Source: Deltaproteobacteria bacterium
Lineage (GTDB): Bacteria > Lernaellota > Lernaellaia > JACKCT01
Length of the DNA: 64,000 bases
Direction: 5' to 3'
NCBI GenBank assembly: GCA_027493875.1
Contig: JAOSJX010000026.1
Coordinates: 109,479-173,478, forward strand
Of this stretch, positions 28,788 to 63,158 are shown piece by piece (positions within the stretch are counted from its first letter, which is position 1; each line of letters starts with the position of its first letter). The position numbers and the translations under genes are program-made. The notes under the pieces are model-generated. The model was not told the DNA's origin. It ran no database searches and worked only from the letters and a program-made list of their open reading frames with translations.

Positions 28788-31208
28788 TCAGCCGCAGCAG
28801 GCTCCGGCGTCGTTGTCCCCGGCGTCCGGACCGGTTCGCCCGCTCGTCGGCGGCACTATCGTCGTCGTCCCCCGCCGCGTCGTCGTCGACCGTATCGTCG
28901 TCCCCGTCGTCAGGCGGGGCCGTTGTCGTCGTCGTGCTCGTCGTCGGCTCGATGGTCGTTGTGCTCGTGGACGTCGCCGGGGCGGTCGTCGATGTCGTCG
29001 TCCCGCCGGATACCGTCGTGGTCGATGAGGAGGCCGTCGTGGTGGTGATCGGCGGAGCGGTCGTGGTTGACGAAGACGTGGTGGTCGAGGACGAACTCGT
29101 CGTTGTCGAAGACGACGTGGTGGTTGACGACGAGCTCGTTGTTGTCGAGCTGCTTGAGGTGCTGGAGGACGACGTGGTCGTCGAACTACTGCTCGTTGTT
29201 GTGGAAGATGACGACGTGGTGGTGGAGGACGAACTTGTCGTTGTCGACGAAGACGTGCTTGTCGTCGTCGAACTGCTCGATGTCGTTGTCGACGAAGACG
29301 ACGTGGTGGTGGAGGACGAACTTGTCGTTGTCGACGAAGACGATGTGGTGGTTGACGATGAGGTCGTCGTTGTACTCGAAGACGAGGACGTCGTCGTGGT
29401 CGTCGAGGAGGACGATGTCGTCGTGCTCGACGAAGAGGACGACGACGTGGTCGTCGTCGATGATGTGGTGGTGGTTGACGACGTGGTCGTCGTGGTCGTC
29501 GTTGTGGGGCTGACGCACGCATCCGCGTCCTCGTCGCACGTCTCCGGCCAGAGGCAGGGATCGCCCGCGTGCTCCGAGCAAACGACGCCCGCGCAGGTGT
29601 CGTCGCCGTTGCAGAACACGCCGTCGTCGCAGGACCCGCCGTCGTTCGGCGTCCACGCGGTGCCGGACGATCCCGGAACGCAGATCTCGCAATCGTTCTC
29701 GGGGTTCGCGTCCTCCTCCTCAAAGAGGCCGCCGTCGATGGCGCACGTTTCGTGGTGGTATTTGACGGTCAGGAAGCGGTCGCCGGTGGGGTCCGTGGCG
29801 CGCGTCTGGCCCCACCACGTACACGTCCCCTTCGTTGTTCGGGCAGACGTCGTAAGCGACGTCCCAGGAGTTGGCGGTTCCGTTATAGCGCATCACCCAA
29901 TCCCGTCGGCCGTCCCGATCGTACTTGATCGTGGTGAAGCTCCCTGTGCGTCCCGTCGCCGTAGGAGAATCCCGCGACGTACACGTTGCCGAACCGGTCG
30001 TGGGCGAGGGCCGACGGTTCGTCGTCGCCGTGGCCCGGGCCGTCGTAGCGCGCCTGCCACCGCTCGACCCCGTCCGTATCGTAATGGACGGTGACGAAGT
30101 CGTGGTTGCGCGTTGCGTCCTCGGAAACGCCCGTGACCCAAACGTTCCCCTCGTCGTCGGCGTCGATCGCGACGACCTCTTCAAAAGAGCCCAAACCCGT
30201 CGTAGTAGCGCACCCAGAGCCGCTCGCCCTCGGGGGAATATTTGATCGTCGTGTAATCATCCAAGCGGCCCGGCTGCGAGGTGACGGCGAGGACATAGGC
30301 GTTGGCGTCGGCATCGACCGCGACGTCCCGCGCCGCGGGGGTGTATTGGCCGCTGACCGTGTAGTGGTCAAACCACACCAGATCGCCGTCGGCGGTGTAT
30401 TTCGCGGCCAGGATATTGATCCGCGCGTAGCCGCCGACGACGACCAGATTGTCGTCGGCGTCCAGGGCGAGACCGTAGCAGACGCTGTACATCGGATAGT
30501 ATCGGGCCCAGACCAGTTCCCCTTCCGGCGAGTATTTCAAGAGGGTGCATTGGTTGTTGGAAACGTTCACGCCGATGTAACCGACGACGTAGGCGTTTCC
30601 GGCGCCGTCCATGACGACTTCGAACGCGCGGTCCCATTCGCCACTTATTTTTCGGAAGCCGATCGGTCCACCGCCACTGGCCGTCCGCATCAAATCCGAC
30701 CGTCATGATGACGTGCTTGCCCCACTCGTCTTCCGTTTCGCCGGCGAGCACCGTGTTGCCGTCCGCATCGACGGCGATGTCCGACACCTCGTCGTTCCGA
30801 TGCTCGGGCGTGTCATACCAGGACGCCCATTCGAGGTCTCCCTCCGGGGTGTATTTCAGCACAGTGAAGTCGCTGGCGTAGGGCGCGATCCCTCCGACGT
30901 AGAGGTTTCCCGACGCGTCGAGGGCCGCCGTGCGCGGGAAGCCGACCGTACTCCGGGACCACGTCCGTTGCCACGCTTCCGTGACGGCCGCCAGGCTGGA
31001 CGAAACCGGCTCGTCGCCGGCGCCGGTCGATTTCCGGTGCGTCTCCCCGGAATGGGCGCCGGCGAACGATTCGCCGGTGAGGGGATCGATCGTTATTTGC
31101 GCCAGCGACGGTCGCGGCCGGATCGGCGTCATCGATCCCCGCGTCGAGGCAGGCGGAAAAGAGAAGCACGAATCCGGCAAGGACGAATATCCCTTTATCG
31201 CCAAGCAC
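28788..31208 (-). CDS. large exported beta-propeller (SBBP-like) protein with Cys-rich module, Ser/Thr stalk, Asp-rich linker and C-terminal CCG (multiple frameshifts)
   Basis: Repeats of D.AVDADGN.YV.G....TIKY...G...W...Y; CDDGVFCNGDDTC; S/T tract; ends DAGDNDAGACCG*. Confidence 0.65.
28930..29505 (-). repeat. coding low-complexity repeat (SSSSTTT)n
   Basis: Roughly 21-nt degenerate units encoding a Ser/Thr stalk. Confidence 0.85.
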
Positions 31209-31341
31209 GGCTACCCTCTGGATTCGAAATAACAACGCACGCCAACTGTAAGAAATCTTACGCTTCGATAGTGTGCGAAACAAGATCCGGTTTTGTCGGC
31301 CACCCTGTTGACCGGGGGACAGCAATCACCGTGGGCGATTA

Positions 31342-60348: not shown

Positions 60349-60371
60349 CCCGAACGAAAAGAGGACGACGT

Positions 60372-63158
60372 ATGCCACGCCGAACGATGCTCATCACCGC
60401 CCTCGCCGTCGCGCTGCTGGCGCCCGCCGCGACCTTCGGCGCGGGGATGACGACGCACACCGATCTGACCGAGCGCGTGCTCGCGGCGTTCGCCTCGGAC
60501 GATTACCCGGATTACGAAGCGTGGGCGGCGCAATATCGCGAAGCGCTGCAGCCCGGCAGCATCTTTCCCGACTGGGGTTTCGTGGGGCAACTCTTTCACG
60601 ATGAGGCGGAGGACGCGCACTGGGACCCCCTTTATTCAGGTCGCCGCCGATTACATCCGCGACACCTATCCGCAGCCCTGGGATGAAGACACGAAACGGC
60701 TCGTCGTTTTTCTGCTCGGCATCACGGTTCATTCCGTTTCGGACGTCGAGTGGCACGGCCTGGGCATCGTGGACGAGTCCCTCATCGACACCATCTCGGA
60801 CATGGAATACCACGGCGACTGGGGCGCGGCGCACACGACCGCCGACGTGGGCGGCGACGCGGTCGGCTCCGGGCAGCTCAACCACGACTTTCTTCTGCAA
60901 CAATGGTACGTGCCCAGCACGGACCTCGTGGCGATCTACGACGAGTACTACAGCGGCACGAGCGTTACCCCTTCGGACATCGAAAACGCGCTGATCGTCA
61001 TGTTCGTCGGCCGCTGGGCGGAAACGCTCTTTTTCTGGGCGGCGCATCCGCTGTGGACGATCAACTCGCCGTTCCTCTGGGAACGCTACCACGACTATTT
61101 CGCCGGCGGTCTCGAAGCGATGGCGATGCAAACCGCCTGGAAGTGGCACGAGGTGATCGACTGGCTGGAAAACGGCCCGCCGCCGCCCTCGCCGGGACCG
61201 GGCGCGCCGCATCCGGACGTGCCGCATGATTTTCTCTTCGACGCCTTGCAGATGCTCGACGCCGCGGGCATCGAAATCCGCCAGCAGCGGACACCGCGCG
61301 GCCTGCTGATTCAAGCGGTGGGCGGCGGCTGGGAACGCGACCCGCGGAAAAAGGAAACGGCGCCGTTCATGGCCTGGGGGCCGACGCTGACCTATACGGC
61401 TTCGCAGAATTACGCCGACCTGGGGTACAGCCTCGCGGCGGGCGATTTCGACGGCGACGGTTATGACGATCTCGCCCTCGGCGCGCCGGGGGTCGGCGAA
61501 GCGGGCGATTTTCGGCGCGGCGCCGTGTTCGTCTATCGCGGCAAGGACGTGCACAACAGTGAAGACATCGACGTCGTGGTCGACGGCGCGGACGTGACGC
61601 TCACGGGCTCGAAAGAGTTCGCGCAATTCGGCCGCGCGCTGGCCGTGTGCGATCTCAACGCGGACGGCGTGGACGATCTCGCCGTTTCGTCGCCGACAAC
61701 CGACGGTATGGGTCATCACTATTACGGCAAAGTTGAAGTTTTCTTCGGGTCCGCGTCGAAGGTCCTTTCAACGGACGCGGACATTACCATTGCCGCCGAC
61801 ACGGACTATACCAATTTCGGCACGACGCTTTCCGGCGGCGACGTGGACGGCGACGGATACGCCGATCTCCTCGTCGGCTCGCCGCACGCGCGGGCCGGCG
61901 GCGTGCAGCGCGGTCTGGCGGCCGTGTACCTGGCGGACGGCGGCAACGCGTCGGGCACGAACTGGGATCTCGACGATGCGACGTGGAGCGAGCAAGGCGA
62001 GGCGGATTACGACTGGTTCGGCTACGCGCTGGCCGCGACCCGGTGGTCGGACGGCGGCACGCGCGTGATCGTCGCGGCGCCGACGCGGGAAATCGGCGGC
62101 GGCCCGGCGACGGGCGAGCTCTACGGCTACGACGGCGCCGACGTGGCGGCCGGCGGATCGCCCGCGCCCGCGTTTACGCTGGCCGGCTTCTCGGCTTTCG
62201 ACAAAACGGGAACGTCGTTCGCGGTGGGCGCGCCCTTTGGCGACGGCGCGCTTTACCTTGCCGTCGCATCGCCGACGCGCGACTCGGGCGCCGCCACGCA
62301 GGGCGGCATGGTCCAGTTCTTCGCGGCGTCGGACCTGGACGGCGATCTGGCCATCGGCGACCTCGCCGCCGCTTCGACGTTCACCTCGTCGCGCGGATTC
62401 AAGCGCTTCGGATGGCAGACGTTGCTCGCCGACATCAACGGCGATGGCGCGGACGACTTCCTCGCCACGCAGCCCTGGTGGACAAACGCCTGGGATCTCA
62501 ACGCAGGGCGCGCGTCGCTGTGGCTGGGCGGTGAGGAATTCCCGACCGGACAGATCGCCGACGCGGACGCGGCCGGATTCTGGCGCGGCGAAGCGGAAGG
62601 CCGCAAAGGTCAGTTCGGCCTGACCGCCGCCTTCCCCGATTTCGACGGCGACGGAGCGCTCGACATCGCTATCGCCGCGCCCTACGCGCACGACGCGGCG
62701 CGCGAAGGCGGCTTGGTGCGTCTGATGCTTACGATCGCACCTCGGCTTGCGTCTCTTGACCCGGACGAAGTGACGCGCGGCGGCTGGCGGCTGCTCACGG
62801 CCACCGGCGAACGCCTCTATCAAGATTCGCTCGCCGCCACCGTGTCCGACGGCACAGGCGACGTGCTGACCGGCGAGATGTGGCAGGACACCGAATCTGA
62901 ATTCTCGGTCGAGGTCTTCATTCCCGCCGACGCCCCGCTCGGCACCTACACCCTCACCGCGCGCACGAACTACGGCGCGGCCACGCTCACGTTCGAAGTC
63001 GTCGACGCCGGGACGCCGGACGATGACGACGATGCGTCGGACGACGATGACGATGCCGGCGACGATGACGCCGCGGATGACGATGCGGCCGATGACGACG
63101 CTTCCAACGGCGGCGAGGGCGAGTCGGGGGGCACGCGGGCGGCGGATGCGGGTGCTAG
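60372..63158 (+). CDS. exported Zn-dependent phospholipase plus FG-GAP repeat protein (GPI-PLD/GPLD1-like) with Asp-rich linker and C-terminal GCGC (frameshifts near 60625 and 63130)
   Basis: GMTTH, GSIFPD, HSVSDVEWH, AHTTADVGGD, WYVP; several GDFDGDGYDDLALGAP-type repeats; GGC GGA TGC GGG TGC TAG after a G6 run. Confidence 0.8.

Follow-up and report, generated by a model that had tools for sequence, protein, structure and literature searches.

C-terminal sorting signals and the tail in the window

To our knowledge, all prokaryotic C-terminal sorting signals described so far are tripartite, with a signature motif followed by a membrane helix and a basic tail. The subject of this report is a tail that ends at the motif, an Asp-rich linker followed by terminal Cys residues and a stop codon, which occurs in a 64,000-nucleotide stretch of DNA (the window, G000:C26:109479-173478) from a Deltaproteobacteria bacterium of the candidate phylum Lernaellota. 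The genome assembly (G000) comprises 5.2 Mb in 28 contigs, with 62% G+C and 78% completeness. The helix-less tail is a lineage-wide, peptide-level C-terminal tag.

The closest described system is MYXO-CTERM. In the portions of the myxosortase reports drawn on here (PMC11980579; 10.1101/2023.06.07.544157), the signal consists of an invariant Cys, often with a second one (the "GCGC motif"), followed by a helix and then by an Arg cluster. The same portions describe the Cys residues as required both for cleavage by myxosortase, a CPBP protease, and for surface anchoring. The proposed order of events is that an unknown, possibly Lgt-like enzyme lipidates the Cys, MrtX cuts distal to it and the T2SS (type II secretion system) exports the product. 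Myxosortases are homologues of Rce1, a mature lipidated C-terminal Cys is their expected product, and MYXO-CTERM is reported in these portions from Myxococcota and Bradymonadales only (PMC11980579; 10.1101/2023.06.07.544157).

Two other C-terminal tags, GlyGly-CTERM with rhombosortase and PEP-CTERM with exosortase, resemble the tail in that many exported proteins without relation to one another carry them, with T2SS dependence in some cases, but these signals are tripartite, with a helix and basic tail, have other signatures and lack a Cys pair. In an NCBIfam search neither model matched P0001, the one window protein that carries the tail in an intact reading frame, and the initial annotation's view of such tails as undescribed is right in that no curated CTERM model matched in that search. 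A further likeness is to CaaX and Rab CC/CXC prenylation (Rce1, ICMT), where a Cys also lies at or beside the C-terminus; ICMT-family genes are present as well. The tail differs from these in that its substrates are exported rather than cytosolic and that no prenyltransferase alpha repeat was matched in G000. No description of a helix-less poly-Asp/Cys C-terminal tag was found in a full-text literature search or among curated models, and a term search of the main text of the Lernaellota paper (PMC9324843), supplements aside, returned neither "C-terminal" nor "Asp-rich".

A class-wide tail on unrelated exported proteins

A six-frame scan of G000 gave 86,121 stop-to-stop open reading frames (ORFs) of at least 30 aa. 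A terminal Cys pair, taken as at least two Cys in the last 6 residues, was found in 1,380 of these, an Asp-rich stretch before that position in 236, and both in 120, against 3.8 expected under independence. At the DNA level the same genome yielded 88 tails (85 in frame and 3 frame-broken), and the genome read backwards yielded none. A chance origin of the tail is excluded. The 120 tails follow the consensus D6-8-G-G-C-(C)-G-C-stop and end in CGC (43), CCGC (33), CCG (15) or other variants (29), preceded by an acidic stretch with a median length of 34 aa and 58% Asp. Lys or Arg occurs within the last 12 residues of 13 tails, and a terminal basic cluster in none. Stop codons are distributed close to genome usage (TGA 84, TAA 21, TAG 15); selenocysteine or stop readthrough at the tail was rejected, since TAA and TAG are used besides TGA. 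Cys codons likewise match the genome (TGC 209 and TGT 71 in tails, 1153 and 444 overall) and all four Gly codons are used, which places selection at the level of the peptide rather than of an element in the DNA.

The initial annotation had described such tails as having neither a membrane helix nor a basic tail behind the motif, and this is borne out genome-wide: within 180 nt downstream, read in three frames, no helix is contiguous with the tail in any of the 120 cases. Hydrophobic segments do occur within that distance after 21/120 tails, compared with 45/600 controls. All 21 read as the starts of the next ORF, most opening with Met and a basic n-region, and the single in-frame case continues for more than 100 residues.

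The tails sit on exported proteins of many kinds. A Sec-type signal peptide lies within the same ORF in 49 of the 120; most of the others are frame-broken upstream and start in wrong-frame sequence. When ORFs of at least 150 aa were scored with a crude test for a signal-like N-terminus, 45/108 tail ORFs were positive against 1,975/15,451 overall, an enrichment among signal-peptide proteins that the initial annotation had asked to be checked. Pfam domains, searched in the 40 longest of the 49 intact signal-peptide proteins, were matched in 27 and belong to a dozen or more unrelated families, in agreement with the earlier view of the carriers as unrelated. They include peptidases (S8 in three, C1 in two, M12, S9 and trypsin-like), other enzymes (purple acid phosphatase/metallophosphatase in two, GH2, FGE-sulfatase, and DUF2334 in two) and binding or repeat domains (FG-GAP, PKD in three, fn3, P-domain, and Kelch propellers in eight).

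The distribution of the tail was followed in 41 genomes, 17 from the window's class (four families) and 24 outgroups from other phyla. Under a strict pattern, which asked for CGC-TGA and, no more than 5 aa from it, four Asp in a row, it was found in 15/41 genomes, all within the class, and in 0/24 outgroups; a reversed-pattern control gave zero in all 41. The two class genomes that this pattern missed, G014 and G015, were at first scored as lacking the tag, a result that was rejected because the pattern is too narrow: GCGC-TGA alone gives 34 and 45 matches there, the corresponding counts being 43 in G009 and, among outgroups, 1 in G034 and 0 in G038. All 20 sampled tails of G014 and G015 are Asp-rich, with DDDx repeats leading to GCGC and the stop. 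The tag is thus present in 17/17 class genomes and, apart from one chance match, in 0/24 sampled outgroups, and no presence/absence contrast is usable inside the class.

A DNA-pattern scan was also made of 185,579 species genomes, with 80 of 112 matching stretches listed. Among the matches listed, nearly all are from metagenome-assembled genomes (MAGs) or from Deltaproteobacteria bacterium HK-STAS-FEN-2; those in Bacteroides, Hyphomonadaceae, Desulfobulbaceae, Solwaraspora and Paenibacillus were rejected as short or out-of-frame chance ORFs. A Krumholzibacteriota MAG encodes a 368-aa protein (L026, 5879-5905) that ends in SNDDDAGCGC but is without an obvious signal peptide and looks cytosolic; it is probably unrelated to the tag.

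Relation to MYXO-CTERM

Full-form MYXO-CTERM tails occur in the same genomes. The TIGR03901 model gave 34 matches in 14/17 class genomes, one to five in each, and none in 14 control genomes. The matched tails consist of an acidic linker, (G/S)CGC, a short spacer, a helix and a basic tail, as in a G000 example that ends ...DDDDDGCGCSVTSGKASGFALPVGMLAIGILAFGLGLRRSR before the stop. G000 has four such tails, and the helix-less form outnumbers them by about 120 to 4. Mrt_core (NF040914) scored over its cut-off in 12/17 class genomes, G000 among them, and in 0/14 controls; the best scores of these myxosortase homologues are to MrtP, MrtC and Mrt_core, below the equivalog cut-offs.

The two forms also replace one another on the same protein. 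A single-copy M10-like metalloprotease, present in 16/17 class genomes, carries the full helix form in 13 and a helix-less tail in three (DDLACGCGL in G005, GGGCGC in G015 and SGWCG in G008, each directly before the stop). The type of tail differs even between G001 and G005, which belong to the same genus. The helix-less tail is therefore the signature half of MYXO-CTERM, acidic linker plus GCGC, homologous to the full signal and interchangeable with it. The initial annotation had set the tail apart from known signals; that claim does not stand, given full MYXO-CTERM tails in the same genomes and on metalloprotease orthologues, together with a myxosortase-family CPBP protease.

Likeness to MYXO-CTERM extends to the C-terminal position, the disordered linker before the motif and a G-C-G-C with its second Cys, to N-terminal Sec signals on dozens of unrelated exported proteins, to the presence of a T2SS (GspD in G000 at C25:112205-114184, 558 bits against a cut-off of 351), and to homologues elsewhere that carry another sorting signal, whether the full form on the metalloprotease or a lipobox in the paralogues described below. 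The tail differs in having neither helix nor Arg cluster, with a stop at the presumed cleavage site, in its extreme poly-Asp linker, in that TIGR03901 does not match P0001, and in belonging to a different candidate phylum from the known hosts.

G002 and G006, which are 98-99% complete, have many tails and no match to Mrt_core or TIGR03901; G006 has no PF02517 match either. Their metalloproteases (L205 in G002, L204 in G006) end in a single-Cys FCGG followed by a helix and a basic tail. A decoupling of the tail from myxosortase, argued from these two genomes, was considered and found weak, as both carry this helix-type tail on the metalloprotease.

A mirror image of the N-terminal lipoprotein tether

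The lineage also makes lipoproteins whose N-termini resemble the tail. A crude test in G000 found at least five Asp within 15 residues after the Cys in 131/573 lipobox N-termini. With a stricter test 89 N-termini had a lipobox and at least four Asp, and 39 of them read CxC(G)-polyAsp (CGCG 19, CSCG 11, CTCG 4, others 5), the exact mirror of polyAsp-GCGC.

Such lipoproteins, with a lipobox Cys handled by Lgt, LspA and Lnt, have in common with the tail that the mature protein carries a Cys at its very end, next to a flexible tether, and those of this lineage share in addition the same poly-Asp and a mirrored Cys context (C-G-C-G-Dn as opposed to Dn-G-C-G-C). They differ from it in using the opposite terminus. 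Moreover, the tail has no signal-peptide helix to present its Cys to Lgt, and where the lipobox reads [LVI][ASTVI][GAS]C, the tail has Asp or Gly before the Cys and no hydrophobic h-region.

The two anchors alternate among paralogues. None of 75 lipobox-polyAsp proteins of G000 with at least 100 aa after the Cys carries a tail as well (114 tail ORFs were compared). Three paralogue families use either anchor, with four N-anchored and four C-anchored proteins forming six homologous pairs. In one pair, C5:5455-7143 (lipobox-CSCG-polyAsp, no tail) and C23:203189-204760 (signal peptide, ending in DDDDDDGCGC) are 41% identical over 433 aa. A homologue of P0001 in G007 likewise has an N-terminal lipobox and poly-Asp and no C-terminal tail. 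The mirror arrangement that the initial annotation had seen in two lipoproteins of the window thus recurs genome-wide, with anchors exchanged inside paralogue families.

Genes of the window

Three window genes had been proposed to end in an acidic spacer and terminal Cys. The clearest is P0001 (34609-35532, minus strand), an intact secreted protein of 307 aa by ORF reading. It opens with a Sec signal peptide, MRRAYLAALAVGWLVPAMAFA, cleaved before Q (35470-35532), which is followed by a globular domain, a Thr-rich stretch, an Asp-rich linker of about 63 residues (34627-34815), GGCGC (34612-34626) and TGA (34609-34611). Profile searches found no Pfam family and, with TIGR03901 included and at E <= 1, no NCBIfam family, and residues 1-215 had no match at 1e-5 among proteins of near length in a 5.8-billion-protein set. 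Homologues of the globular domain (34888-35532, minus strand) occur in 7/17 genomes of the class, and G014 holds as many as 8 paralogues. Most of these paralogues and orthologues end in polyD-GCGC.

The second gene, an FG-GAP repeat protein on the plus strand (60345-63158, by Pfam and frame reading), has a weak Zn-phospholipase-C-like N-terminal region. Its signal peptide lies in the 60345 frame, its body in the 60601 frame and its Asp-rich linker at about 63009-63100. The frame break between signal peptide and body is explained by an extra base at 60626, where the frame of the signal-peptide fragment shifts; two independent short-read runs have contigs that lack this base. The printed reading closes with GACGLLRS. 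Moving by one base within the G6 run at 63126-63131, which no short-read contig of four runs covers, leads instead to GHAGGGCGC and a TAG at 63156-63158. Full-length orthologues in other assemblies end in GGGCGC (G003), DGCGC (G006 and G002) and DSCGKL (G005), and the corrected frame is supported by the three of four that end in GCGC. The gene was said to need one indel fix; it needs at least two, at 60626 and in the G run.

The third gene (28788-31208, minus strand) is heavily frame-broken, with at least five frame pieces in its body. A lipobox signal peptide (GTG at 31208, ...VLLFSAC) precedes SBBP/delta-60-like beta-propeller repeats, a Cys-rich module, a Ser/Thr-rich stretch of about 250 aa and an Asp-rich linker. 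One indel near 28840 joins ...DDDDSAAD to ...GPDAGDNDAGACCG and the stop, giving a tail that reads ...DAGDNDAGACCG with TGA at 28788-28790; it is among the three frame-broken tails of the DNA-level scan. The propeller fragment had no orthologue in five relatives at 1e-15, and the tail, reached by frame correction, is plausible. Here too a single fix had been proposed, and one shift does reach the tail, although the body remains in its several pieces. The acidic spacer and terminal Cys are intact in P0001, are supported by orthologues in the FG-GAP protein and are plausible for the third gene.

The Ser/Thr-rich stretch of the third gene, at 28950-29620 (minus strand) between the Cys-rich module and the Asp linker, is composed of Ser and Thr only and mucin-like; long antisense or off-frame ORFs over it, such as a 1104-aa ORF at 26305-29619, are spurious. 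Frequent single-base indels in the assembly leave many genes split between frames genome-wide, which probably explains the completeness estimate of G000.

Two lipoproteins of the window, both on the minus strand, have the N-terminal sequences previously described for them. One, with a Peptidase_C13 domain (35703-38339), reads ...GAVS-C-GCG-DDDDDD (...GAVSCGCGDDDDDD). The other (50213-50944), without a Pfam or NCBIfam match, reads ...GWVA-C-GG-DDDDDDDDD (...GWVACGGDDDDDDDDD / ...ACGGDDDDDDDDD).

Candidate modifying enzymes

A typical bacterium has one copy of Lgt. The class has more: TIGR00544 matched three times in 15/17 class genomes, twice in G004 and once in the fragmented G007, whereas 19 of the 24 outgroups have one match, four have two and one has none. 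In a tree of 18 Lgt copies from six genomes (loci L219-L236) they form three orthogroups with one member per genome each, at 99-100% bootstrap; the G000 copies are C6:103017-103784, C26:65964-66443 and C12:183351-183869. Only one orthogroup lies in an lspA-lgt operon. The three orthogroups are ancient, occur throughout the class and are candidates for the modifying enzyme. Beside paralogue C, in G005 only, lies a LytB(IspH)-UbiA prenyltransferase fusion (L221, G005:C7:444714-457463, 4173-5918, minus strand).

An enzyme that co-occurs with the tag had been suggested as something to look for. The lipoprotein with the C13 domain, a family that includes legumain and GPI-transamidase, is encoded directly upstream of P0001, but its candidacy for a dedicated enzyme was rejected, since PF01650 occurs in 1/17 class genomes (G000 only); among outgroups Peptidase_C13 was found in 1/24. 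ICMT-family genes are present and are common in bacteria.

Radical SAM/SPASM genes lie near the myxosortase homologue in 7/11 loci, an adjacency that is not class-wide. In the f4 genomes radical SAM/SPASM genes, among them one with a carbamoyltransferase fusion, have the myxosortase-family CPBP gene directly downstream, and in G000 and G004 no more than 3 kb separates the homologue from a radical SAM gene. The loci concerned include L244 (G010:C7:175211-187516, 5992-12299), L248, L251, L252, L250, L253 and G000 C2:264647-265843. These neighbours may be relevant to the modification of Cys, or the cluster may have nothing to do with it.

Proposed mechanism and alternatives

The tail probably represents a new kind of tether, one that acts through a protein's final residue. 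The explanation that we favor, with chances that we put at about even, is that it acts as a naturally "pre-cleaved" MYXO-CTERM, whose terminal Cys would be lipidated after export, likely by Lgt paralogues, before the T2SS takes the protein to the surface. Sec would export the tail proteins and the signal peptide would be removed; a membrane enzyme, with the two additional Lgt paralogues, both ancient, as first candidates, would then add a lipid to the thiol of the terminal Cys. The protein stops at the very point presumed to be the myxosortase cleavage site of the full signal, and the product, a C-terminal lipo-cysteine on an acidic stalk, would be the same as a processed MYXO-CTERM protein, with no need for the intramembrane protease. 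The T2SS would carry this lipidated product to the cell surface. In topology the tag would mirror the lineage's own N-terminal tether, lipobox-C(xC)G-polyAsp.

Several observations weigh against this pre-cleaved MYXO-CTERM. The two anchors are not strictly exclusive, as an ACCG tail is combined with a lipobox in window gene 28788-31208 and two further genuine lipobox proteins carry tails. The contrast in tails between proteins with SPI and SPII signals is weak in a crude test (41/1,591 against 4/384, p = 0.085). Nor is the link between protease and tail type a clean one, given the helix tail on the metalloproteases of G002 and G006, where Mrt_core is not matched. Paralogues B and C of Lgt have no conserved neighbours, and the extra copies may simply serve a very large lipoproteome, counted above as 573 crude lipobox N-termini. 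A soluble protein in the periplasm that lacks a helix has nothing obvious to keep it at the membrane while it is modified, and no enzyme is known to us that attaches lipid to a free Cys at the C-terminus outside the cytoplasm. Finally, the lipid on MYXO-CTERM is called predicted in the portion of the source drawn on here (PMC11980579), with no chemical demonstration even in Myxococcus, which makes the key step an analogy to a hypothesis.

A related account, possible although we give it less than even prospects, treats the tail proteins as mirror-image lipoproteins: a dedicated Lgt paralogue would lipidate the free C-terminal Cys in the periplasm, with neither a helix nor a sortase-like protease.

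It is rather unlikely that the tether is not a lipid at all. The terminal CxC or CC could form a disulfide or thioether with an envelope or S-layer partner, or the thiols and poly-Asp could chelate a metal (Ca2+, Zn2+ or Fe) and so hold the enzyme on the cell surface or on particles of mineral. Such a role would suit the pair of neighbouring Cys at the extreme end and a linker as highly charged as this one. A CxC also adjoins poly-Asp in the 39/89 N-terminal tethers, where one Cys suffices for lipidation and the second may therefore have another role, and the radical SAM/SPASM genes beside the myxosortase homologue belong to a group that often modifies Cys. Against this, the motif matches exactly the signature of MYXO-CTERM, in which the Cys is linked to membrane anchoring, and in paralogue families a lipoprotein anchor of the ordinary kind takes the place of the tail in some members; no partner protein was identified, and radical SAM enzymes are cytoplasmic and their adjacency does not extend to the whole class.

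Release from the surface is more unlikely still. Loss of the helix would free a formerly surface-anchored protein, poly-Asp-GCGC being at most a tag for solubility or secretion recognition. No helix holds these proteins at the membrane, the cargo consists mostly of degradative enzymes able to act at a distance, and TraA without MYXO-CTERM is released to the medium via the T2SS in the portion of the source drawn on here (PMC11980579). A remnant should decay, however, yet the stop comes right after the Cys motif in 91/120 tails (CGC, CCGC or CCG), and unrelated proteins retain the motif in 17/17 genomes from four families of the class, even though truncation upstream of the linker would be equally effective for release.

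An artefact, in which assembly errors truncate the ORFs, or the stop is subject to readthrough or recoding, and the real proteins run on into a helix, is highly improbable and largely refuted already. The assembly is indeed error-prone, with many frame breaks and one indel confirmed by short reads, but identical endings recur in 16 further assemblies made with different assemblers, three stop codons are all in use at the tails, a helix is contiguous with the tail in no frame, and the stop follows GCGC in 20/20 sampled tails of G014 and G015. Eukaryote-like cytoplasmic prenylation of a Rab-type CC/CXC end, an analogy that the initial annotation had drawn, can hardly be right despite the resemblance of the endings, as the proteins have Sec signal peptides, poly-Asp precedes a motif that matches MYXO-CTERM instead, and the prenyltransferase alpha repeat (PF01239) has 0 matches in the 78%-complete G000.

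Implications for the lineage and for MYXO-CTERM

In this lineage a whole candidate phylum places the motif alone on about 100 hydrolases and adhesins that each genome exports, and it still keeps the protease and a few full-form copies. This would extend MYXO-CTERM and myxosortase beyond Myxococcota and Bradymonadales, and it would change the annotation of the lineage's secretome from soluble to surface-tethered. A tag of five residues for display on the surface would be a further gain.

Should the tail still act as an anchor, then the helix and myxosortase would be dispensable for modification of the Cys, and the unknown modifying enzyme of MYXO-CTERM would become testable, with the three Lgt orthogroups as candidates. 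If the tail proteins are mirror-image lipoproteins, the modification step of MYXO-CTERM would be separable from cleavage, which would point to its long-sought enzyme.

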